A stretch of DNA of 12,124 nt from a virus (taxonomy: Duplodnaviria; Heunggongvirae; Uroviricota; Caudoviricetes): positions 1 to 12,124 of IMG/VR virus record IMGVR_UViG_2695420576_000002, one strand, 5' to 3'. Positions within the stretch are counted from its first letter, which is position 1; every line of letters begins with the position of its first letter. The notes under the pieces are model-generated. The model was not told where the DNA came from. It saw nothing but the letters and a program-made list of their open reading frames with translations, and made no database searches. The position numbers and the translations under genes were made by a program. Positions 1-12,124 of the stretch are shown here, piece by piece.

Positions 1-558
1 GTGCCAACGTTGGCACATTTGGGAAAAGCCAAACTTTTCGAATTAATGACAGAAGACGACGAAGAGCTTGCCGAACTGGCCGACGGCGGCACAGTTGCCG
101 GCCTGACGCTTGACGACGTTGATCGCATGTCAGTACGTGAATTGCGTCAGGCCCTGCGCGAAGCGCGCGAAACCAACGCAGCACAACAGCGCGTACTCGC
201 TGACAAAAATGAAAAAATAGACTCACTCTCCACCAGACTGGAGAAGAAATCCCGTATTCAGCCGCCTGAGCCTGATGAAGAGGTTAAGAAGCTGCGGGCG
301 GAAGTGACAGCATTAGCGGTTGAGGCGGAATCTGCTATCGCCGTTCGACTGTCCAGCGCTTTTGAGACGCTGTGCGCATATTGTGCTGAAAACATGATTG
401 ATACCCCCAGAGACTTCATGGCAGGCCTGGTCTGTCAACTGGAAAGCACAGCGCGTAGCCTGCGCTCCACATTTGACCTGCCGGATGAGCCAACAGGCAA
501 TGCCGCGCCTTCATGGCTGACTGAGCCGACGCCACAGATTAACGGGCTGGAGGCATAA
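1..558 (+). CDS. hypothetical phage early protein, 5' partial (reading frame open to the window edge)
   Basis: ORF runs from base 1 to TAA at 556-558. The transposase ATG follows 4 bp later with GGAGG at 548-552, so it is co-oriented with the transposase operon. Acidic N-terminal part and coiled-coil-like middle; no family recognised. True start is probably upstream of the window. Confidence 0.5.
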   Translation: MPTLAHLGKAKLFELMTEDDEELAELADGGTVAGLTLDDVDRMSVRELRQALREARETNAAQQRVLADKNEKIDSLSTRLEKKSRIQPPEPDEEVKKLRAEVTALAVEAESAIAVRLSSAFETLCAYCAENMIDTPRDFMAGLVCQLESTARSLRSTFDLPDEPTGNAAPSWLTEPTPQINGLEA

Positions 559-561
559 CCA

Positions 562-2331
562 ATGAATGCTGCCCTGACTGAACGACTGGTTTATGTCGCC
601 CGCGCGGCACGTGACGCGGGGCATGGTAAACGCGGTGCAATATACGACGCTGCCTGTGCTGAACTTGGCATGTCCCGCGCCACTCTGCTGCGCAGGCTGA
701 AGGAGGTCTCTGTGACTGATAAACGCAAAAAACGCGCTGATGCCGGACGCAGCGCCCTGACCCGCGACGAAGCCGCGCTGATATCTGCCACACTGCGTGA
801 GGCCACCCGCAAGAACGGTAAGCGTCTCTATTCCATCGCGGATGCAGTGGAAACCCTGCGGGCTAACGGCTTTATCTCCGCAGGCAGAACAGATGAAACC
901 ACCGGTGAGTTTTTCCCGTTGTCCGAAGATGCCATCAGTCGTGCCCTGCGTAACTATGGCCTGCACCCGGAACAACTGGATGCTCCTGCGCCGCATACCG
1001 AAGTGGCCAGTCTGCATCCCAATCATGTCTGGCAGATTGATGCCTCGCTCTGCACGCTTTACTACCTGAGCAATGGACACAAAGGGCTGCAGGTGATGGA
1101 CAGCGCGAAGTTCTACAAGAACAAACCCGCTAACCTTGCCCGTATCGCCAGTGACCGCGTGTGGAGTTACGAGATTACCGACCATGCCAGCGGCTGGATT
1201 TACGTTGAGTATGTGACGGGTGCGGAATCCGGTGAGAACCTGTGTTCTGTGCTTATCAACGCCATGCAGGAGCGTGGCGGCGCAGACGTGCTGCACGGCG
1301 TGCCAAAAATACTCTATCTCGACCCCGGTTCGGCAAACACCGCGGGTATGACGAAAAACATGTGCCGCTCACTGGGCATTGACCTGATAGCGCACAAGCC
1401 GCATAACGCCCGCGCCACCGGACAGGTGGAAAAGGCGCGTGACATTATCGAACGCAAGCTGGAGCCGGGTCTGAAGTTCCGGCCGGTTCACAGTCTGGAA
1501 GAACTCAACGCGCTGGCCGCGAAATGGCGCAGCCACTTTAACGCCACGGCTGTTCACAGCCGCCACGGTAAAACCCGCACGGATATCTGGCTGAAGATTA
1601 CTGCTGAGCAGCTGAAAAAAGCGCCTTCCGTTGAGGTATGTCGTGAACTGGCTGTGGCGGCACCAGAACTCCGCAAAGTCACGCCAAAACTTCGTGTCTC
1701 GTTCCGGGGCACTGAATTTGACGTATCAACGGTACCGGGCGTACTGGTTGGTGAAAAACTGATGATTACCCGTAACCCATGGCGCAGCGATGTGGCACAG
1801 GTGGTTCTGACCGGTGAGGACGGCCACGAGACGTTCTTCCTGGTCGAAGAGGTCAGAAAGAACGAGTTTGGCTTTGCTGAAGGCGCGGCGGTATTTGGCG
1901 AAAGTTACAAAGCCCTGCCGGAAACCCCGGCACAGATGGCGGCAAAAGAAACCGAAGCGCTGGTTACCGGTACAGACAACGCCGCAGATGCAGCCGCCGC
2001 ACGCAAGGCGAAGGCGCTGCCGTTCGGCGGGCGGCTTGACCCGTATAAACATATCGACGACACCACACTTCCGGCCTATATGCCGAAGCGTGGTCAGGCC
2101 TCTGACGTACGCGGGCCGCGCACTGAACAACGTCCCATGACTCATGTGGAGGCCGCGAAAGCCCTGCGCGATAAGTTCAGCGCCGACGGCCTTACCTGGA
2201 CGCCGGAACATTACCGCCAGTTAACGGCACAGTACCCGGACGGCGTACCGGAAGCCGCACTGGATGAAGTCATGGCCACGCTGACCACACCGGCCCGCAG
2301 CAGTGTTATCAGCATTGTTAACGGCAACTGA
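562..2331 (+). CDS. DDE transposase, Mu A-like (retroviral-integrase superfamily), 589 aa
   Basis: ATG at 562 with GGAGG 10 nt upstream. Candidate catalytic triad D160 (HVWQIDAS), D254 (LYLDPGS), E290 (TGQVEKA), giving the classic 35-36 residue D-to-E spacing. N-terminal region looks HTH-like. Shorter than MuA (663 aa) and unlike the MuA sequence as recalled. Confidence 0.85.
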   Translation: MNAALTERLVYVARAARDAGHGKRGAIYDAACAELGMSRATLLRRLKEVSVTDKRKKRADAGRSALTRDEAALISATLREATRKNGKRLYSIADAVETLRANGFISAGRTDETTGEFFPLSEDAISRALRNYGLHPEQLDAPAPHTEVASLHPNHVWQIDASLCTLYYLSNGHKGLQVMDSAKFYKNKPANLARIASDRVWSYEITDHASGWIYVEYVTGAESGENLCSVLINAMQERGGADVLHGVPKILYLDPGSANTAGMTKNMCRSLGIDLIAHKPHNARATGQVEKARDIIERKLEPGLKFRPVHSLEELNALAAKWRSHFNATAVHSRHGKTRTDIWLKITAEQLKKAPSVEVCRELAVAAPELRKVTPKLRVSFRGTEFDVSTVPGVLVGEKLMITRNPWRSDVAQVVLTGEDGHETFFLVEEVRKNEFGFAEGAAVFGESYKALPETPAQMAAKETEALVTGTDNAADAAAARKAKALPFGGRLDPYKHIDDTTLPAYMPKRGQASDVRGPRTEQRPMTHVEAAKALRDKFSADGLTWTPEHYRQLTAQYPDGVPEAALDEVMATLTTPARSSVISIVNGN

Positions 2332-2341
2332 GGAGGGAAAC

Positions 2342-3508
2342 ATGCTGGTACTGAAGCAGCAACTGAAAGAGGCCCGTATTCCACAGGCGGTGGTGGCGAG
2401 AGCTGTCGATGTTTCTGAGGCCACGCTGGCCCAGATTGTGAATCATAACGCGTGGCCCCGCACCAGCCCCGGAGAAGTGCGCCGGCGTCTTGCGTCCTGG
2501 CTGGAAAGTCAGGGGATTGATACAACGAAGAGTTTTGATGCTGTACAGGGCGCGGCCACGCCCCGTACAGCGGGTACCACAGATAAAACGAGCCTCAGTG
2601 AGGAAGAGAATATGTTACTCAAAAAACAGGTGTTATTTCCAGCAACCAAAAAAGCGTTTGGTCTTTTCCGTGACCCGTTCGCCGACGAAGCCATGCAGGG
2701 TTCTGATGATGTGTTCACCACCCCGGATATTCGCTACGTGCGTGAGGCGTTGTACCAGACAGCCCGTCATGGTGGGTTTATGGCCGTCATCGGTGAGTCC
2801 GGTGCGGGTAAATCCACGCTGCGCCGCGACCTGACTGAACGTATCAACCGCGAGAATGCGCCGGTAATTGTTATCGAGCCATACATCATCGCTATGGAAG
2901 ACAACGATGTGAAAGGGAAAACCCTGAAGGCAGCAGCGATTGCCGAAGCCATTATCAGTACCATCGCACCACTGGAAAGCATCAGACGCAGTCAGGACGC
3001 CCGCTTTCGCCAGTTGCATCGCGTCCTGAAAGACAGCAGCCAGGCGGGGTTCAGCCACGTTCTGGTGATTGAGGAGGCCCACAGTCTGCCCATTCCGACA
3101 CTGAAACACCTCAAACGCTTTTTTGAGCTGGAGTCCGGTTTCAAAAAACTGCTGTCCATCGTGCTGATTGGCCAGCCGGAACTGGCGACAAAACTGTCTG
3201 AACGCAATATGGAAGTCCGTGAAGTCGTTCAGCGCTGTGAGGTGGTCGAACTTCTGCCTCTGGACAATAACCTTGAAGAGTTTCTGACGTTCAAACTGCA
3301 ACGGGCCGGTAAACAACTGACGGACATTATGGACGCCAGCGCAGTGGATGCCATACGTGCCCGCCTGAGCAATCCGGGAAGTCATCGTAAAAATATGGTC
3401 AGCCTGCTGTATCCGCTGGCCGTCAGTAACCTGGTAATAGCCGCCATGAATCTGGCCGCTGAAATCGGGGTTCCACAGGTCAACGCTGACGTTGTCAAAG
3501 GGGTTTAA
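2342..3508 (+). CDS. transposition target-DNA activator ATPase, Mu B-like AAA+ protein, 388 aa
   Basis: Start chosen at ATG 2342 (AGGAGGG at 2331-2337) rather than the ORF-track start at 2303. Walker A GESGAGKST and Walker B-like VLVIEEAH. N-terminal HTH-like segment. Sits directly after the transposase, as B does in Mu. Confidence 0.8.
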   Translation: MLVLKQQLKEARIPQAVVARAVDVSEATLAQIVNHNAWPRTSPGEVRRRLASWLESQGIDTTKSFDAVQGAATPRTAGTTDKTSLSEEENMLLKKQVLFPATKKAFGLFRDPFADEAMQGSDDVFTTPDIRYVREALYQTARHGGFMAVIGESGAGKSTLRRDLTERINRENAPVIVIEPYIIAMEDNDVKGKTLKAAAIAEAIISTIAPLESIRRSQDARFRQLHRVLKDSSQAGFSHVLVIEEAHSLPIPTLKHLKRFFELESGFKKLLSIVLIGQPELATKLSERNMEVREVVQRCEVVELLPLDNNLEEFLTFKLQRAGKQLTDIMDASAVDAIRARLSNPGSHRKNMVSLLYPLAVSNLVIAAMNLAAEIGVPQVNADVVKGV

Positions 3509-3510
3509 TA

Positions 3511-3780
3511 ATGAAATCCACCACAGGTATCAACCAGCAAATCAGCAAAGTGCAGTCAGCCATTATGGCGCTTAAGGCGACGAACACGGATGTACAAAGC
3601 ATCACCATCAGGGGTAACAAACCTGTCATCCGCGTTTCCCGGAGTGCGCATTGCATGCGCATGCTTGAGCAGGGAAAGGCCTGTTATCTGTATACCGGTC
3701 ATGACCACAGGGGACATTTCCGTCAGGGCGTTTTCGAACTGCACGGCTGTCGCGTCGTGTGGCCGGAATCTTTGTGGTAA
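3511..3780 (+). CDS. hypothetical small protein (89 aa)
   Basis: ORF starts 3 bp after the B stop, same strand, within the operon. No recognisable motifs. Confidence 0.45.
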   Translation: MKSTTGINQQISKVQSAIMALKATNTDVQSITIRGNKPVIRVSRSAHCMRMLEQGKACYLYTGHDHRGHFRQGVFELHGCRVVWPESLW

Positions 3781-3807
3781 TCAGCACAACAGGAGGAGTC
3801 ATAAAAT

Positions 3808-4338
3808 ATGGCAAAAAGTACAAAAGGGGCAAAACGTATCAAAGCCGCAGCAGCACTCTGGGTGCCGGGGACACGCGAAGAGGTCATTGAGGGAATCAGA
3901 CTGCTTGGTGACGCGCAACGTGAACTGGTCAGGGCTGAAACAGAAATGAATGACACCATTGGCGACATCACTGCACGTTATGCCCCGCTCACCGAGAGCC
4001 TGAAAAAACGCATGGCCGAACTGCAGTCCGGTATCCAGACATGGTGTGAGGCGCACCGTGATGAACTGACCGGCAACGGGAAGGTGAAGTTCGCTAACCT
4101 CACCACCGGCGAGGTGCAGTGGCGAAACCGTCCGCCGTCAGTCAGCATTCGCGGGGCGGATAATGTCATTGAACTGCTGAGACGTCTGGGGCTTGAGCGC
4201 TTTATTCGTGTAAAGGAGGAAATAAATAAAGATGCCATTCTGAATGAAAAAGAGGCTGTGAAAAATATTCCCGGTATTACCATAAAAAGTGATATTGAGG
4301 ATTTTTCAATAATTCCTTTTGAGCAGGATGTGCAGTAA
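3808..4338 (+). CDS. gam: Gam-like host-nuclease inhibitor / DNA-end-binding protein
   Basis: 176 aa. AGGAGG at 3791-3796. The translation closely resembles Mu Gam as recalled, including the C-terminal IEDFSIIPFEQ segment and internal segments such as ETEMND, RPPSVSIRG and RFIR.KEEINK. Confidence 0.85.
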   Translation: MAKSTKGAKRIKAAAALWVPGTREEVIEGIRLLGDAQRELVRAETEMNDTIGDITARYAPLTESLKKRMAELQSGIQTWCEAHRDELTGNGKVKFANLTTGEVQWRNRPPSVSIRGADNVIELLRRLGLERFIRVKEEINKDAILNEKEAVKNIPGITIKSDIEDFSIIPFEQDVQ

Positions 4339-4380
4339 ACACACCACGTTAATTATTTAATAAAAACATTTTCTTTTTTA

Positions 4381-4417
4381 TTCCGGCGTCAGCGCCGCGG
4401 GCTTCTGCACGCCGGAA
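4381..4417. repeat. perfect 9-bp inverted repeat TTCCGGCGT / ACGCCGGAA around a 19-nt GC-rich spacer
   Basis: Read directly from the gam to zinc-ribbon intergenic region. Preceded by a T-rich stretch, followed by the RBS and ATG at 4436. No U-tract after the stem, so it is not a classic intrinsic terminator. Confidence 0.6.
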
Positions 4418-4435
4418 ACAGAGGAGAATTAAATT

Positions 4436-4630
4436 ATGATATTTAAATGTATTCAGTGCGAGAGGGATATAACAGCCCTGCGTTTTCACAGCGCCATCGC
4501 CGTGATGTCCGGTAAGTATCACATACCTGCAGTACGTGTCACCCTGGTCTGCCCGTACTGCAGCCAGCATTTTTCGGCGGACGTGCCCGTCATGGAATTC
4601 TCCCGCCCTGACAGGGAGGACGCGCAATGA
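4436..4630 (+). CDS. zinc-ribbon protein (CxxC...CxxC), 64 aa; possibly an Ogr/Delta-like or Com-like regulator
   Basis: C5/C8 and C39/C42 pairs. N-terminus MIFKCIQC resembles the Ogr/Delta start MFHCPLC as recalled. RBS AGGAG lies upstream of the ATG at 4436. Confidence 0.5.
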   Translation: MIFKCIQCERDITALRFHSAIAVMSGKYHIPAVRVTLVCPYCSQHFSADVPVMEFSRPDREDAQ

Positions 4631-4899
4631 TTACCCCACAGGAAGCACGACAGCGCACCCGAACTCTTGTTGAACACTATGTCAACGAGTGTGAATGCCG
4701 CGACCTCACCGATGTGAAGCACGTCCTGACGGCGCTAATCAGCATGGCCACACAGGCCATTGTGGCGACCAACGGAAAGGAGGCTGCCCTGCAGGTACTG
4801 ATGAACACACTCACCCACACGGCAGAGCATGAGGTGCCGTACCGGATGGAAACCACTGCAGAAGGCGGCCTGCACATCACCGTCAGCCGGAAGCACTGA
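4627..4899 (+). CDS. hypothetical protein (90 aa)
   Basis: ATGA start/stop overlap with the upstream ORF at 4627-4630, suggesting translational coupling. RBS AGGGAGGA upstream. No family recognised. Confidence 0.45.
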   Translation: MITPQEARQRTRTLVEHYVNECECRDLTDVKHVLTALISMATQAIVATNGKEAALQVLMNTLTHTAEHEVPYRMETTAEGGLHITVSRKH

Positions 4900-4908
4900 G
4901 GGCGCGGC

Positions 4909-5205
4909 ATGACACGAAACACCGAACTCACCCGCACCGCCCTCTACCGTCTGGCCCTGCAGCGTTTCGGGCCGGACGCACAGGCCCTGAAACTGGCAGA
5001 AGAGGCCGCTGAACTGGCGGCCAGTGCCGCCCGCAACCTGAACGGACAGGGCAGCGAAAGTGACCTCGCGGCAGAGCTGGCAGACGTGGAAATCATGACA
5101 GAGCAACTGCGCCTTCAGGGGATGGACCGGCTGATTGACTTCCACAAACAGAAAAAACTGGAACGTCTGGCTGCACGACTGGGCGTGATTTACACGAACG
5201 AGTAA
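4909..5205 (+). CDS. MazG-like nucleotide pyrophosphohydrolase family protein (tentative), 98 aa
   Basis: About 100 aa and helical. Acidic motifs LAEEAAELA and ELADVEIM are spaced like the EExxE and ExxD metal-binding motifs of small MazG-type NTP pyrophosphatases. Assigned from motifs only. Confidence 0.45.
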   Translation: MTRNTELTRTALYRLALQRFGPDAQALKLAEEAAELAASAARNLNGQGSESDLAAELADVEIMTEQLRLQGMDRLIDFHKQKKLERLAARLGVIYTNE

Positions 5206-5219
5206 CCGGGAGGCATTCA

Positions 5220-5435
5220 ATGGCTGACATACTCAGGGAAATCACCGCATGGACACTGATTCTTACTGGCCTGGCGACATGCCTCAGTGCGGGGGCAGCC
5301 CTGGCTGCCCTGCTGATGCACATAACAACACAGTGGTTATGGGAAAAGCTTAAAGCAGCATACAGCCTGAAAGAGCTGTCCGACGCTGTCCGGGCATGGA
5401 AACGGCAGAAAAATACCGGAGATACAGAACAATGA
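5220..5435 (+). CDS. small membrane protein (71 aa, one predicted transmembrane helix)
   Basis: Hydrophobic segment WTLILTGLATCLSAGAALAALLM followed by a charged C-terminus. RBS GGGAGG upstream. Confidence 0.4.
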   Translation: MADILREITAWTLILTGLATCLSAGAALAALLMHITTQWLWEKLKAAYSLKELSDAVRAWKRQKNTGDTEQ

Positions 5436-6115
5436 CAGACCAGAATAAACACATTGAGAAACTGAAAAAGTTGCTGGCGCTGGCCGCATCCGGCAACCCG
5501 CACGAGGCCGCTCTGGCACTGCGCCGAGCCCGTAAACTGATGGATGTTCACGGCATCACACATTCCGACATTGCTATGAGTGATATTGATGAAACCATCA
5601 GTCACTACTGGCCGACAGGCAGTCTCCGTCCACCGCGCTACATGCTGGGCCTGATGAACATCATCCGCGAGGTATTTGGTGTTAACTCCATCATTCACCC
5701 CGGCACGCATCCGTCTGTGGGGTTCTACGGCAACCGGGAACGTGCGGCACTGGCTGCATACACCTGGGAAGTGCTGGCCCGTCAGCTGAAAAAGGCGCGT
5801 CAGCAGTATATCAGTGCACAGAACAAAAGAATAAAAACCGCCACCCGCACCAGCCGTGGAGACCAGTTTGCCGAAGGCTGGGTGCTGGCCGTTATCAGTG
5901 AAATACAGTCCTTTGCCCTGACCGATGATGAGCGTGAACTGATGCAGCAGTGGCTGGAACATAAATACCCGCAGACGCAAACCACCAGGGCGCGTAAACC
6001 GGGAAGAAGCCGCAATGGCGACGCCTCGCGCTATGCGGGGTTTCGTGAAGGGCAGAACGTCAGACTGCACCGCCCGGTCAGTGGGCAGGAACAACAGAAA
6101 CTGGAGGCCAGATGA
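5432..6115 (+). CDS. DUF2786-like phage protein, 227 aa
   Basis: Start chosen at ATG 5432 (ATGA overlap with the preceding stop, GGAGA upstream) rather than 5396. N-terminal IEKLKKLLALAASGNPHEAALALRRARKLM matches the conserved N-terminal signature of the DUF2786 family as recalled. Confidence 0.55.
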   Translation: MTDQNKHIEKLKKLLALAASGNPHEAALALRRARKLMDVHGITHSDIAMSDIDETISHYWPTGSLRPPRYMLGLMNIIREVFGVNSIIHPGTHPSVGFYGNRERAALAAYTWEVLARQLKKARQQYISAQNKRIKTATRTSRGDQFAEGWVLAVISEIQSFALTDDERELMQQWLEHKYPQTQTTRARKPGRSRNGDASRYAGFREGQNVRLHRPVSGQEQQKLEAR

Positions 6116-6342
6116 TTACGCTATCAGGTAAAAGCCGGAAATTAAAAGCCTGCCGAATATCTGCCAGATACCTTTTTGCCCGCGCCTTTTTTAAGAACGT
6201 CAGGCCGGGGATCACAATTGGTGTTATTGCCGGACGCGAACAGGTTGAAAAATACATGTCAGGTGCATGGTGGAATAACGACCCTGTCATTGCTGCCCGT
6301 AATATTCATATCGAATGGGGAGGTATTCAGAATGACTACTGA
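6112..6342 (+). CDS. hypothetical small basic protein (76 aa)
   Basis: ATGA overlap with the upstream stop and GGAGG at 6103-6107. However the 5' half is AT-rich and contains a palindrome and T-runs, so part may be regulatory rather than coding. Confidence 0.3.
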   Translation: MITLSGKSRKLKACRISARYLFARAFFKNVRPGITIGVIAGREQVEKYMSGAWWNNDPVIAARNIHIEWGGIQNDY

Positions 6343-6538
6343 AACCATTGTCTGTTTTCTTTTCTGGTATATGTACGCAGGATCATGCAGCGCAAGACTT
6401 CATCGTTCCCTGGGCTATGGCAGGCACTACGACACCGCGCATTACATCCTGTACATGACCGCCGTCATGTTGTTCTGGCCAGTCACCCTGCCAGCTGCAA
6501 CCGACATTGTTGCCGACAGACTGAAAAAAAGGAGATGA
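6331..6538 (+). CDS. small membrane protein (69 aa, two hydrophobic segments)
   Basis: ATG at 6331 with GGGGAGG at 6316-6322. Hydrophobic stretches IVCFLFWYMYAG and ILYMTAVMLFWPVTL. Confidence 0.4.
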
Positions 6539-6539
6539 T

Positions 6540-6989
6540 ATGCAGAAAAAACGCCTGATACAGCTTATCCATATTGCCCGTAATGAACTGGGTATGGATG
6601 AAGACACCTACCGCCAGATGTTACAGGGGCTGACCGGTAAAGCCTCAACCAAAGGAATGGATACCACACAACTAAACTGCGTGCTGGAATCCATGAAAAA
6701 GAAAGGCTTTCGCGTTAAACCAGCCAGAAAAGCCAGCTCCGGTTTACCGCTTGATAACCATCCGCAGTCCAGGAAAATTCGTGCGCTATGGCTTGAAATG
6801 GCTGCTGCCGGCATTGTTCGTGACCGTTCAGAAAATGCATTAGCGAGGTGGATCAAGCGGGAAACGGGCATCAGCGCCCTGCGCTGGCTCAGTACTGAAC
6901 AGGCAAGCAGTGTTATTGAGAAACTGAAGAAGTGGCAGCGCAGAGCTGCGGGAGTCAAACATGAGCGACCTGAATCAGTTTCGAAGTAA
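6540..6989 (+). CDS. gemA: GemA/gp16-like regulatory protein (DUF1018 family)
   Basis: 149 aa. The translation matches the gp16 family pattern as recalled (LIQLIHIA...L.GLTGK.S...M...QL..VLE.MK..GF). GGAG upstream of ATG 6540. Sits immediately before the mor-like gene, as in Mu. Confidence 0.7.
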   Translation: MQKKRLIQLIHIARNELGMDEDTYRQMLQGLTGKASTKGMDTTQLNCVLESMKKKGFRVKPARKASSGLPLDNHPQSRKIRALWLEMAAAGIVRDRSENALARWIKRETGISALRWLSTEQASSVIEKLKKWQRRAAGVKHERPESVSK

Positions 6990-7350
6990 GGGGCCGGAAC
7001 TCCTGGTGGAACTGGCACAGCATACCTCTGAGACCGTTCGCGAGATTATTGATATTGAGCCCGAAGTTGCCGACCAGATTGGTCAGGCCGTCGCGAACCG
7101 AATGATGCAGGTCTGGGGCGGGCAAAACGTTTATTTCCCGATGGGCATGGTATGGAAGGTCAGTCAGCGCGACCGGGAAATCTTCAGGGAGTTTAACGGA
7201 CGCAACCACCACGAACTGGCCCGCAAATTTGGTGTTTCGCTTCAGTGGGTCTACAGCGTGGTTAAGCGGGTAAGAAAAGAAGAACTGGATCGGATGCAGG
7301 GCAAGCTATTTGCTGATGAACCCGATGCAGATACGGAGAAAAAAGAGTAA
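6961..7350 (+). CDS. mor: Mor-like middle-operon transcriptional activator
   Basis: 129 aa, the same length as Mu Mor. C-terminal HTH region FNGRNHHELARKFGVSLQWVYSVVKR resembles the Mor/C family. Last gene of the early operon. Overlaps the gemA 3' end by 29 bp. Confidence 0.8.
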   Translation: MSDLNQFRSKGPELLVELAQHTSETVREIIDIEPEVADQIGQAVANRMMQVWGGQNVYFPMGMVWKVSQRDREIFREFNGRNHHELARKFGVSLQWVYSVVKRVRKEELDRMQGKLFADEPDADTEKKE

Positions 7351-7511
<161 letters not shown>

Positions 7512-7673
7512 CAAATACGGCAATCCCGACGATGGGGATCAGCGCCAGCACGGTAGCAACGGCCTGTACGCGGGTGATCATTTTCGGACCGACAATGTTC
7601 AGCAGGACGAAGATCCACAGCACCACGACGCAGGTGATGGTTAATACCAATGGATCTTTCAGAATCGGGAAGA

Positions 7674-7734
7674 AGTAACTTAAATATCTAACTTAAATAT
7701 CCTACGCCAAAGTAACTTAAATATCCTACGCCAA
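7674..7734. repeat. nested direct duplication within adiC: 22-bp unit TAACTTAAATATCCTACGCCAA at 7689-7710 and 7713-7734, plus a 13-bp partial copy at 7676-7688 (net +37 bp)
   Basis: Read directly from the sequence. Relative to the expected single copy encoding IGVGYLSYF, the extra 37 bp shifts the frame and creates a TAG stop (translation ...[15 protein letters not shown]). Confidence 0.8.
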
Positions 7735-7735
7735 T

Positions 7736-7777
7736 GACCACCATGGCGATATTGCCGACCACCATGGCGATATTGCC
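7736..7777. repeat. perfect 21-bp tandem duplication GACCACCATGGCGATATTGCC x2 within adiC (in-frame repeat of GNIAMVV)
   Basis: Read directly from the sequence. The - strand translation shows [13 protein letters not shown] where native AdiC, as recalled, has a single NIAMVV. Confidence 0.85.
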
Positions 7778-8074
7778 GATCCAGCAGGCCAGCCAGTAGA
7801 GGACGTTGGTTTGATAACCGAGAAACGGGCCAAAGCAGCGGCGGGCGTAAGCGTAAGAACCACCAGGACTTGGGTCGAGGAACGACATTTTGGCGTATAC
7901 CATCGAGAGCCCCAGCGCACCGATAATCGTCACCAACCATCCATAAATAGCAATCCCGCCAGTGGAGGCCAGGTTTGCAGGTAACAGAAAAACACCTGAC
8001 CCCATAATATTCCCCGACACCATCAGGGTGACGGGGATTAAGCCCACTTTGTGAGCATCAGCATCCGAAGACAT

Positions 8075-8210
8075 AATTAAACTCCTGCGAAGGCGAGCTT
8101 CGTGACAATAAATTACGTCATATCATACGCCTGCATTCGATAGTTGAATTATTATCGGCCGGGTTATCGCTGATGCCGTTATTAATATAGCTCTTCGTTA
8201 AGGTTAAAAA
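8075..8210 (-). promoter_or_regulatory. adiC upstream region (promoter and 5' UTR, with a small hairpin CGAAGCTCGCCTTCG just upstream of the RBS)
   Basis: Intergenic region between the adiY stop and adiC start. Assigned by position only; no -10/-35 elements were confidently identified. Confidence 0.3.
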
Positions 8211-8972
8211 TCAGGCGACAGTGCGTTCTCTGTGCTGACTAACATAATGCAGCGGCGTCATACCGTAGAAGTCTTTAAAGACAGAAATAAAGTACGACGT
8301 ACTGTTGTAGCCGCAGGACTGTGATACCTGAGAGATATTTTTACCGTCCATCATTAATTCATTTACGGCATAACGCATGCGGCAGGTGGTGATTATTTGG
8401 CTATAACTGGTGTTTTCGCTTTTCAGCTTTTTCTTTAACAGACTTGGGCTAAGACATAAACAACTGGCTACCATACTAAGATTCCAGTCTTTGTGGATAT
8501 CGCTTTCAATAATTTGATAAACGCTGTCACTTACACAATTACGTAACATATACATCATTAGTGAAAGGAATTTTTTACTGTCGAGAAAACGGGATAGCAC
8601 AGTGAATAATAATGCACGTGTTCGTTCCTTTTCTGACTCAGTTTCAGCGGGCATCATGCTATGCTGCGCGGCAACGCGAAAGACGTCTGGCGTCAGGCAT
8701 GGAAGGGTGAGGATGGGCGTAGCGCTACGTTGCCATACTGGTATTTGCGAGAGATCTTTATTCAGAAACCGGAGGTAATCTTTGATGATGTCGTGACTAA
8801 TATGAGCAACCAAAGTGTTATTAAGAGAGGAGACGTCGATAATATTATTTTCACAATTTAATAACGCCATGTGGTTAGCTTTAAGGCTAATAGGTTCTTT
8901 CCCATTCACCCTTATCCAGACATCTTTTTCAGTCAATAAAACAATACAAGGTTGGTCGCTGCAAATCCTCAT
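8211..8972 (-). CDS. adiY: AraC-family transcriptional regulator AdiY
   Basis: 253-aa translation matches E. coli AdiY as recalled. Conserved synteny adiC-adiY-adiA-melR. Confidence 0.9.
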   Translation of the reverse strand: MRICSDQPCIVLLTEKDVWIRVNGKEPISLKANHMALLNCENNIIDVSSLNNTLVAHISHDIIKDYLRFLNKDLSQIPVWQRSATPILTLPCLTPDVFRVAAQHSMMPAETESEKERTRALLFTVLSRFLDSKKFLSLMMYMLRNCVSDSVYQIIESDIHKDWNLSMVASCLCLSPSLLKKKLKSENTSYSQIITTCRMRYAVNELMMDGKNISQVSQSCGYNSTSYFISVFKDFYGMTPLHYVSQHRERTVA

Positions 8973-9163
8973 ACATGTACTCCTGAGTGCGAATAAAAGA
9001 CCAGTTCTCGCTAAAGCGAAGCGATACCGGGAAATGGTTATATAATTGTATGATGAATATAAACATGCATAAAAATAACGAGTTTTACTAATATTACAAA
9101 TTTTTATAGTAATTTCTCATGTACATATTTTTTTACAGGCTAAAAAAAGGATAAATAACAGGC
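8973..9163 (-). promoter_or_regulatory. AT-rich adiY upstream region (putative promoter)
   Basis: Strongly AT-rich stretch at about 9000-9160 between the adiA terminator and the adiY start. Assigned by position only. Confidence 0.3.
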
Positions 9164-9190
9164 AAAAAAAAGCGCGGGGTGGGACCGCGC
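9164..9190 (-). terminator. rho-independent terminator downstream of adiA
   Basis: On the - strand: 6-bp stem GCGCGG, 7-nt loop UCCCACC, stem CCGCGC, then U8. Lies about 120 bp downstream of the adiA stop. Confidence 0.6.
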
Positions 9191-9307
9191 AAAAAGCATG
9201 ACATTTTTTGTTTGCAGCAATTTTTATGAAAACGTTGCCATACTTAAAAGGCCTCAAGCCAGGCGGCGTAATGTTATTTAACAATTACGCCTTCAGCGGA
9301 ATAGTGG

Positions 9308-11578
9308 TTACGCTTTCACACACATAACGTGGTAAATACCGTCAATAATTTCTGTCCCTTCTGTTTCGTGTTCAAATCCAGGGAAATGATGGTCCCAGGA
9401 TTGCAGCGAGCGTAAATAACTTACTTGCGGACTGTTTTTATCGCCGAAGTTTTCACCAGACAGCAGCATCGGGATTCCTGGCGGATACGGGATAACTGAG
9501 TTTGCCGCGATACGTCCTGGCAGATTTTCAATGGATACCAGTTCGACATTGTTGTCGACAATCGCGTTGTACGCTTCACGCGGGGTGATTTCCGCCACCG
9601 GTAGGCCGGAATAGGCTTCATTCAACCGTGCGCCAGGGTTGTTTTCTTTCAGCCAGGCAAACATGGTGTCACCCAGATCGTGAATCCCCATGTTCGCGTA
9701 AGTGTCAGGATATTGTTCAACAAGTTCCGGCATCACCTGCGCCAGCGGTGTGTTGGCATCATAGTGGCGTTTGAAGGAGCAAAGGGTGTTAACCAGAGTC
9801 CCCCATTTCCCACGGGTCACGCCCATAGAGAACAGGAACATAATCTGGAAGTCAGTGGTACGGGTAGGCACAATGCCGTGGCGACCAAGCCAGGCTGTGA
9901 CCAGCGCCGCCGGAACACCGGTTTCTTCCAGTTCACCATCTTCACCCATTCCCGGAGCAAGGATGCTGACTTTAATCGGGTCGAGCATACTCCAGTTATC
10001 CGGAATATCTTTGAAGCCGTGCCAGCTTTCGCCCGGATGCATGACCCAGCAGTCCTGAACGGTGGTCAGCAGTTTGGTTGGTGCGTCAGCAAAGTCATAG
10101 GTTTTGCCGGTTTGTGGGTCGGTGACGACTTCTTTGTTCCACGGTTTGAAGAACCAGCTACCGTCAGCGGTGAACTCTTTATATAGCCGCGCCATCGCCT
10201 GACGGAAATCAACCGCTTCGTCGATCACTTCCTGGGTCAGTGACAGGCCGCTGTTGCCGTCCATCATCGACACCGCCACGTCGTTGGATGCGCAGATGGC
10301 ATACAGCGGGGAGGTGGTGGCATGCATCATGTAGGCCTGGTTGAAGCGGGAGAAGTTAATCGCCCCACGACCTTCACGTACATGAATATAAGAGGCCTGT
10401 GACAGCGCATTCAGCAGTTTGTGGGTGGAGTGGGTGGCGAAAACGGTAGGACCGTTGTGATCGCCAGGTTCGCCGCGCATGGCATAGTGATCGGCATAGA
10501 TCGGGTTGAAACGTGCATAGCCGTACCAGGCTTCGTCAAAGTGCAGACGATCGGAGGTTTTTTCCAGCAGATCCTGTGCTTCTTTAGCGTTATAACACAC
10601 GCCGTCATAGGTGCAGTTGGTCACCACGCAGTAAGACGGTTTTTGCCCGGCTTTGTCTTTGGTCAGCGGGCTTTCATTGATTTTCTTCTGCAAGGTTTCA
10701 GGTTGCATTTCCTGCGGATAGATTGGCCCGATAATGCCGTAGCGGTTGCGGCTTGGCACCATGTAGACCGGTTTCGCGCCTGTCAGCATCAAGCCTTGTT
10801 CGATGGATTTATGGCAGTTACGGTCAACGACCACTACATCGTTATCGGTCATGCAAGCCTGCATGATGGTGCGGTTAGAGCCGGAAGTACCGACGACTAC
10901 CGACCAGGAGCGATCGGCACCAAATACGCGTGCGGCATATCTTTCGCTTTCGCCAAATGCGCCAGTATGGTCAAGCAAAGAACCGAGGGAAGTGCGTTCG
11001 ATACCCATGTCGGTGCGGAACAGATTTTCACCATAATAGTCATGGTAGAAACGTCCGGCGGGTGTTTTGGTAAAACCAACGCCGCCCTGGTGGCCTGGCG
11101 CTGCCCAGGAATATTCATGGATGTCGCTATATTTCATCAGCGCGCTGAACAGTGGCGGCAATAGCTGCTGGCGGTAGCGGGTCATCGCGGCAACGGCGCG
11201 TCCGGCGATAAAGTCGGCGGTATCTTCCAGAATCCAGGCGAATTCATCGACAAGCTCCAGCAGATCCCGGTCCATTGCGGCGAGGGCTTTTTCCCGATCG
11301 CCCAACAGGAAGACCGGCACGTTTTGTTGGCGCTCATGAAGCTTACCGATCAATTGTCTGACGTTTTGATGTTCGTCCGGATGTTCCATTTGATAGCTGA
11401 ACATCAGGCAGTCAATGGCTTCGTTTGAAGAGAGAATGGCAAAACCATCATCAAAGGAGGTGGATTTAATCACGGTAACATTTTGCTGGCTTAAAGCATC
11501 TGCCAGACGCTCAACGGCGTTACCGACCCAGGTGTCTTGATGGAGAAACTCGCTTTCAACAATTAATACTTTCATCAT
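9308..11578 (-). CDS. adiA: biodegradative (acid-inducible) arginine decarboxylase AdiA
   Basis: Full-length translation matches E. coli AdiA as recalled (MKVLIVESEFLHQDTWVGNAVERLADAL... ending ...IDGIYHVMCVKA). The ORF has tandem ATG codons, so the true start may be 11575 rather than 11578. Confidence 0.93.
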   Translation of the reverse strand: MMKVLIVESEFLHQDTWVGNAVERLADALSQQNVTVIKSTSFDDGFAILSSNEAIDCLMFSYQMEHPDEHQNVRQLIGKLHERQQNVPVFLLGDREKALAAMDRDLLELVDEFAWILEDTADFIAGRAVAAMTRYRQQLLPPLFSALMKYSDIHEYSWAAPGHQGGVGFTKTPAGRFYHDYYGENLFRTDMGIERTSLGSLLDHTGAFGESERYAARVFGADRSWSVVVGTSGSNRTIMQACMTDNDVVVVDRNCHKSIEQGLMLTGAKPVYMVPSRNRYGIIGPIYPQEMQPETLQKKINESPLTKDKAGQKPSYCVVTNCTYDGVCYNAKEAQDLLEKTSDRLHFDEAWYGYARFNPIYADHYAMRGEPGDHNGPTVFATHSTHKLLNALSQASYIHVREGRGAINFSRFNQAYMMHATTSPLYAICASNDVAVSMMDGNSGLSLTQEVIDEAVDFRQAMARLYKEFTADGSWFFKPWNKEVVTDPQTGKTYDFADAPTKLLTTVQDCWVMHPGESWHGFKDIPDNWSMLDPIKVSILAPGMGEDGELEETGVPAALVTAWLGRHGIVPTRTTDFQIMFLFSMGVTRGKWGTLVNTLCSFKRHYDANTPLAQVMPELVEQYPDTYANMGIHDLGDTMFAWLKENNPGARLNEAYSGLPVAEITPREAYNAIVDNNVELVSIENLPGRIAANSVIPYPPGIPMLLSGENFGDKNSPQVSYLRSLQSWDHHFPGFEHETEGTEIIDGIYHVMCVKA

Positions 11579-11773
11579 TGCTTACCCGGTTATGAAGGAA
11601 TCTTCGTTGCGGGCAAGTATCTTCCGGCCTTTTCGGGCTGTAAAGCGCGTGAAAAACAAACATTTTTGAAATATTTATTTTTATAAACAATACGTTATGT
11701 GATTATTTTAAATTATTTTCACTGCTTATTATCGACGGCTAAACTATTTTTTTGGCTGATACTGATATCGTCT
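11579..11773 (-). promoter_or_regulatory. adiA upstream regulatory region (AT-rich, putative acid/anaerobiosis-inducible promoter)
   Basis: Intergenic region between the melR stop and adiA start, with a very AT-rich tract at about 11650-11760. Assigned by position; no specific sites identified. Confidence 0.35.
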
Positions 11774-12124
11774 TTAGCCGGGAAACGTCTGGCGGCGCTG
11801 TTGGCTAAGTTTGCGGTATTGTTGCGGCGACATGCCGACATATTTGCCGAACGTGCTGTAAAAACGGCTACTCGAACGAAAGCCTGCCGTCAGGGCAATA
11901 TCGAGAATACTTTTATCGGTATCGCTCAGTAACGCGCGAACGTGGTTGATGCGCATCGCGGTAATGTACTGTTTCATCGTCAATTGCATGACCCGCTGGA
12001 ATATCCCCATTGCATAGTTGGCGTTAAGTTTGACGTGCTCAGCCACATCGTTGATGGTCAGCGCCTGATCATAGTTTTCGGCAATAAAGCCCAGCATCTG
12101 GCTGTAATGCCGGATCAGTTAAGG
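11774..12124 (-). CDS. melR: melibiose operon regulator MelR (AraC family), 3' part; gene continues beyond the window end
   Basis: Translation ...HVKLNANYAMGIFQRVMQLTMKQYITAMRINHVRALLSDTDKSILDIALTAGFRSSSRFYSTFGKYVGMSPQQYRKLSQQRRQTFPG matches the MelR C-terminal HTH domain as recalled. Lies next to adiA as in E. coli K-12. The ORF-track M at 12097 is internal. Confidence 0.85.

Follow-up and report, generated by a model that had tools for sequence, protein, structure and literature searches.

Perfect tandem duplications are a classic signature of real polymerase slippage, and in simple slipped-strand duplication the misalignment is normally guided by short flanking direct repeats. The concepts of SRS, FoSTeS and MMBIR are said to come from Chen et al. 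in 2005 and Hastings et al. in 2009; these mechanisms have been described chiefly for alleles that cause human disease and for stress-induced amplification in E. coli. It is established that complex mutations in clusters can stem from serial slippage and from short template switches (PMC5453318). The repair of Mu insertions employs proteins of double-strand-break repair and of replication restart, with RecABC and PriA acting near the phage ends (PMC3325207). Head-to-tail repeats of adjacent sequence may also be produced when short-read drafts are misassembled at the boundaries of repeats and mobile elements, with overlaps left untrimmed during gap closing, patching or consensus building; such repeats would lie within about one read length of the boundary and be found in a single assembly, and further one-off errors may occur at another repeat boundary of the contig.

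The stretch of DNA that we analysed (the window, 12,124 nucleotides) is the entire contig AOQH01000112.1 of the draft assembly GCA_000397345.1, which dates from 2013; no paper naming AOQH or GCA_000397345 was found in the literature. Positions 1–7513 hold, on the plus strand, the early region and the right end of a Mu-like transposable prophage. Its genes encode a DDE transposase (562–2331), Mor (6961–7350), an AAA+ MuB-like protein, Gam and GemA. The Pfam families found on the called genes (rve, AAA_22, Phage_Mu_Gam, GemA and Mor) and the RefSeq annotation of relatives were concordant, and the prophage region was 98.8% identical to Escherichia phage PhiKM. The DDE transposase, the MuB-like AAA+ ATPase, Gam, GemA, Mor and the terminal CA are all shared with a Mu-type insertion, as is the joining of one end to many host sequences, whereas, unlike in Mu itself, the early region here directly adjoins the right end.

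The terminus of the prophage, ...TCTAATCA with its terminal CA, ends at 7513, and the same terminus abuts 23 distinct host flanks in other genomes. Because one terminus is found at 23 different host sequences, 7513 is a true phage end, and adiC was interrupted after codon 168 and not deleted. The original prediction of an adiC remnant was thus correct in that the fragment belongs to adiC and keeps its first 168 codons, but the fragment is not the product of a deletion, since it was cut by the insertion of the Mu-like prophage. This 5' part of adiC lies on the minus strand at 7514–8074 and consists of wild-type codons 1–168 and 58 extra bp, up to the prophage end; to the right of it follow adiY, adiA and a fragment of melR. 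The Mu-type prophage insertion explains the truncation of adiC, but it does not explain the duplications described below.

Prophages of the PhiKM-like family were present in 644 of 5,426 complete E. coli genomes (about 12%), at many sites, among them the interior of other prophages, ycaL, paaZ and the cmoB–torZ spacer. In strain cS51a, CACCGA appears to flank the prophage on both sides, which hints at a target duplication of 5–6 bp and at a putative left end starting TGATGCGCC. We also noticed that public assemblies contain N-terminal fragments of AdiC in hundreds of distinct forms (around residues 108–190; examples are fragments of 110, 111, 113, 122 and 145 aa), several of them on 30–200 contigs each. 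It appears that adiC is recurrently inactivated, or broken at contig ends, across E. coli lineages.

To describe the anomaly within adiC, we aligned the region 7674–7777 directly to the wild-type gene. Strain D8 served as the wild-type reference; it is 100% identical to the window elsewhere over 7512–7688 and 7757–12104. It was found that the sole difference consists of extra copies of adjoining sequence, with a net gain of 58 bp. Tandem Repeats Finder reported three perfect tandem arrays, with 100% matches and 0 indels, and the alignment to the wild type confirmed them. A unit of 21 bp (GACCACCATGGCGATATTGCC) is present twice, at 7736–7756 and 7757–7777, and this perfect, in-frame duplication, which had been predicted, repeats the AdiC residues GNIAMVV (100–106). 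A 24-bp unit (AGTAACTTAAATATCCTACGCCAA) is likewise duplicated in frame, at 7674–7710 and 7711–7734, and repeats GVGYLSYF (residues 108–115); its first copy is split by an extra 13 bp. These 13 bp belong to the third array, a perfect duplication of the unit TAACTTAAATATC at 7676–7688 and 7689–7701, nested in the first 24-bp copy. It is the only one of the three that shifts the reading frame, and a premature TAG stop on the minus strand (7688–7690) spans its junction and ends a product of 128 aa.

The original prediction counted two separate duplication events, the second being a 37-bp gain at 7676–7734 built from two full copies and one partial copy of a 22-bp unit. The size of this gain, its coordinates and its effect, a frameshift followed by a stop, were borne out. 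Its composition is more accurately given as the 24-bp duplication and the nested 13-bp one, and there are therefore three junctions (13, 24 and 21 bp) in place of two events. Each of the three units occurs in a single copy in wild-type adiC. In 352 kb of other loci that we fetched, there were only 3 perfect tandem duplications with a period of 8–60. Given the single-copy units of the wild type and this low background, the duplications are not a matter of chance.

The anatomy of the junctions was then considered. A single 5'-to-3' pass over the wild-type sequence that jumps back three times, by 13, 24 and 21 nt, reproduces the window exactly, and the segments copied between the jumps are 22 and 46 nt long. 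Such an exact one-pass rebuild is compatible with a single event but is no proof of one. The microhomology was 0 nt at the 13-bp junction, 1 nt at the 24-bp junction and 2 nt (GA) at the 21-bp junction. Direct repeats of several nucleotides bounding the units, the short flanking homologies that had been suggested as an explanation of slippage, were not found at any of the three. The locus shares with simple slipped-strand duplication the perfect tandem copies of 13–24 bp but differs from it in that guiding direct repeats are absent and no recurrent hotspot is seen elsewhere. In the wild-type segment we found no hairpin or other stalling structure, as it folds no better than shuffled sequences do (z = -1.09). 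The duplications lie 163–265 nt from the prophage end, and the 4,348 bp of adjoining host DNA to their right contain zero substitutions relative to strain D8.

We then looked at where the duplicated and the plain alleles occur. The exact 128-aa product was found on one contig only, AOQH01000112.1 itself, and in the NCBI source only; its absence from Logan is informative only if the reads of the strain are in SRA. In contrast, adiC cut by the phage but free of the duplications, with a 169-aa product (...IAVFD), was found on 7 contigs, drawn from NCBI, the Logan read assemblies and ENA; the terminal D and the stop of this product are encoded by the phage end. These 7 contigs could all come from sister isolates, and not from re-assemblies of the same strain. 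None of the six partial combinations of the three duplications exists in the phage-cut context. Megablast with junction-only queries showed that the three duplication junctions are absent from the 5,426 complete E. coli genomes. Full-length AdiC with 7 extra aa, 8 extra aa or both is absent among about 15 billion proteins, so that a search for the duplications in strains with an intact adiC, a point raised in the original prediction, yielded none. Neither JGI metagenomes nor GTDB species representatives contained a match to the phage/adiC junction; the 21-bp junction was searched for in the former and the 24-bp junction in the latter, likewise without a match. Recurrence of the duplications in independent lineages, as expected of a hotspot, was not seen in the 5,426 genomes or the roughly 15 billion proteins. 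The survey of related strains for the same duplications, which had also been proposed, thus returned none of them; what it did return was the identical phage-cut allele without them. The duplications are peculiar to this one contig.

A sequence of 113 aa, which would also be expected from the 13-bp duplication alone, was present on 31 contigs. Recurrence of the 13-bp duplication by way of this product was considered and rejected as unproven, as the 13-bp junction is absent from all of the complete genomes. The cluster neighbours of the 113-aa sequence are plain wild-type prefixes of 108–113 aa, and its simplest reading is a Y114 nonsense mutation (TAC to TAA or TAG in codon 114), 1-nt deletions or partial genes at contig edges. 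Look-ups of AdiY, of a 68-aa phage protein with the change P52T and of the 107-aa MelR fragment returned only common alleles or unrelated disruptions of melR.

We also examined the right-end flanks of other insertions of this phage family. A perfect tandem duplication was found in 0 of 23 distinct flanks (12.7 kb in all), and the duplications are therefore no normal by-product of the insertion of this phage family. The existence of the plain phage-cut allele similarly indicates that the insertion event did not give rise to them, provided that the contigs which carry it share the insertion by descent.

Additionally, the contig carries other oddities of its own. Near the phage terminus, at 7491–7500 and thus in the same 290 bp as the duplications, the window has CCCACGGAAC in place of the GTCATTTATC found in every relative. 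The six substitutions of this patch are packed into 7491–7499, that is, 14–22 nt from the terminus. When the phage part was compared with two prophages that are 99.9% identical to it, only 7 differences were seen, namely these six bases and P52T. The latter is the A/C difference at position 6485 and lies in a 68-aa phage protein; its T variant is common, with about 30,000 blocks in the gene-position collection. All 22 relatives that we fetched and 532 complete genomes have TGTCATTTATC, and the window alone has TCCCACGGAAC; the patch was absent from these relatives and genomes and from IMG/VR. A natural phage variant was accordingly rejected as its origin, in view of its absence from IMG/VR and the 532 complete genomes, and copying from the left end of the phage was rejected as well, since the left end of a close relative does not contain it. 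There is no inverted copy of the patch within the window. Nine of its 10 bases (7491–7500) equal the sequence of the uninterrupted, empty-site adiC at a shift of 1 nt, a match that was reached in 1.8% of Monte Carlo trials in which the same six bases were changed at random. This resemblance to the empty adiC site is suggestive, being moderately significant and not overwhelming; the patch would be a mosaic that arose in the consensus, or else a templated one.

The far end of the contig is affected as well. Its last 20 nt (12105–12124) belong to the terminal inverted repeat of an IS4 element in melR, and this repeat contains one extra G, at about position 12113: the window reads GCCGGATC, whereas strain 7CC has GCCGATC. 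The melR/IS4 junction itself is the same as in strain 7CC, where a 13-bp target duplication, CAGCATCTGGCTG, flanks IS4. In the remaining 11.8 kb, only one difference from the closest relatives was seen, the common P52T variant; this single difference across the rest of the contig shows that the anomalies are local to the mobile-element boundaries. It is clear that both mobile-element boundaries of the contig carry private oddities.

Slippage or template switching on the one hand and an assembly artefact on the other, both of which the original prediction had named, remain the two live explanations. On balance, and with moderate confidence, we favour the second, in which the three duplications result from an error, of assembly or of consensus calling, confined to one part of a single draft contig of 2013, and were most likely never part of the bacterial DNA. 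The error would have arisen in the approximately 270 bp beside the point where adiC, as unique DNA, meets a mobile element, the Mu-like prophage. Successive pieces may have been appended with their overlaps left untrimmed during gap closing, patching or consensus building, which would give three backward restarts. The true allele would then be the plain phage-interrupted adiC with the 169-aa product ...IAVFD, as in the other assemblies. This reading is the most likely one because the duplicated allele is a singleton while the plain allele is on record in NCBI, Logan and ENA, because private oddities are found at both mobile-element boundaries (the patch at the phage end and the extra G in IS4), and because all anomalies on the adiC side lie at most 265 nt from the junction, about one read length. 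With the misassembly of short-read drafts the locus shares head-to-tail repeats within about one read length of a mobile-element boundary, confined to one assembly, and further one-off errors at the contig's other repeat boundary; three junctions in series, only 22 and 46 nt apart, are not typical of it.

Some observations speak against an artefact. Perfect tandem copies are, as stated above, what real slippage leaves. Without supporting reads, junctions with overlaps of only 0–2 nt are beyond what a pure de Bruijn-graph or overlap assembler can create, and only a concatenating or patching step would account for them. In addition, the pieces between the junctions, 22 and 46 nt, are shorter than normal reads.

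The main rival is a real mutation, which we regard as possible but less probable than an error of assembly. After the prophage had inserted, the polymerase would have dissociated and re-primed upstream three times, 13, 24 and 21 nt back, in a single event, by serial replication slippage or by template switching of the FoSTeS/MMBIR type. A single synthesis of this kind gives the exact window, and the microhomologies (0, 1 and 2 nt) fall within the described range of 0–5 nt. No intermediate allele is known in the phage-cut context, as one compound event predicts, and the 4.3 kb of flank without substitutions rule out a slow, independent accumulation. Most assemblers, moreover, need physical support for such junctions. 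As the gene was already inactive, there would have been no selection against the duplications. The locus shares with serial slippage, FoSTeS and MMBIR several switches within about 100 bp, 0–2 nt of microhomology, direct local copies and a lack of intermediates; compared with FoSTeS and MMBIR it would represent the simplest form, in which all three jumps are short, backward and on the same template. Against a real event of this kind stand the single draft contig as compared with the 7 contigs that carry the plain allele, the lack of a stalling structure in the folded segment, and the patch at the phage end and the extra G at the IS4 end, for which it does not account. In our judgement, a triple switch within 100 bp is also very rare when set against the error rate of draft assemblies of the period.

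The patch would be accounted for if all of the anomalies were real and came from one event tied to the prophage, an MMBIR-like repair footprint of transposase action beside a Mu-type prophage, but we consider this improbable. In an abortive induction, the transposase would nick the right end of the prophage, the replication fork would collapse, and an error-prone restart would switch template. Three of the switches would be the short backward jumps in the adiC flank, and a fourth would copy about 10 nt of the opposite adiC flank into the phage terminus, the opposite flank being kept close by the synapsed phage ends.

It is very improbable, and slightly more so, that the duplications, or at least the one of 13 bp, are footprints of mobile elements, such as a target-site duplication of an IS4 element that was later lost, or scars of the Mu-like insertion and its repair. 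IS4 is present in the strain, in melR at the end of the contig, and makes 13-bp duplications, as in melR of 7CC; the 13-bp duplication in adiC has this same length and zero microhomology, as the fill-in of a staggered cut would leave. The units of 21 and 24 bp, however, match no known element, and we know of no E. coli element that makes target duplications of either length. To our knowledge, E. coli also lacks classical end joining with which an excision site could be resealed. IS4 was not found at 7688/7689, in either orientation, in any of the 5,426 complete genomes. As for a scar of insertion, Mu repair does employ break-repair and replication-restart proteins near the ends (PMC3325207), but flank duplications were seen in none of the 23 independent insertions of this phage family, and the same insertion is known without duplications.

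Finally, three independent microduplications acquired by neutral drift after the truncation are effectively excluded and the least probable of all: insertions into the inactive gene would indeed be unselected, but the relaxed selection put forward earlier fails on the pattern. The 4,348 bp of adjoining host DNA contain zero substitutions relative to D8, alleles that carry just one or two of the duplications are absent from the phage-cut context, and three rare events within 100 bp of a 560-bp fragment are unexpected from independent mutation, which leaves one compound event or an artefact.

As adiC had already been inactivated by the prophage, the duplications have no functional consequence, whether they are real or not, and although adiC encodes the arginine/agmatine antiporter of an acid-resistance system, little biological weight attaches to them. 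The locus also calls for caution, because a cluster of mutations in a draft contig that lies next to a mobile-element junction and is absent from all other assemblies of the allele needs a check of the reads before it is interpreted. If the duplications are true, they would be a clean bacterial case of serial template switching in three steps at junctions nearly devoid of microhomology, and may link such switching to the end of a Mu-type prophage.
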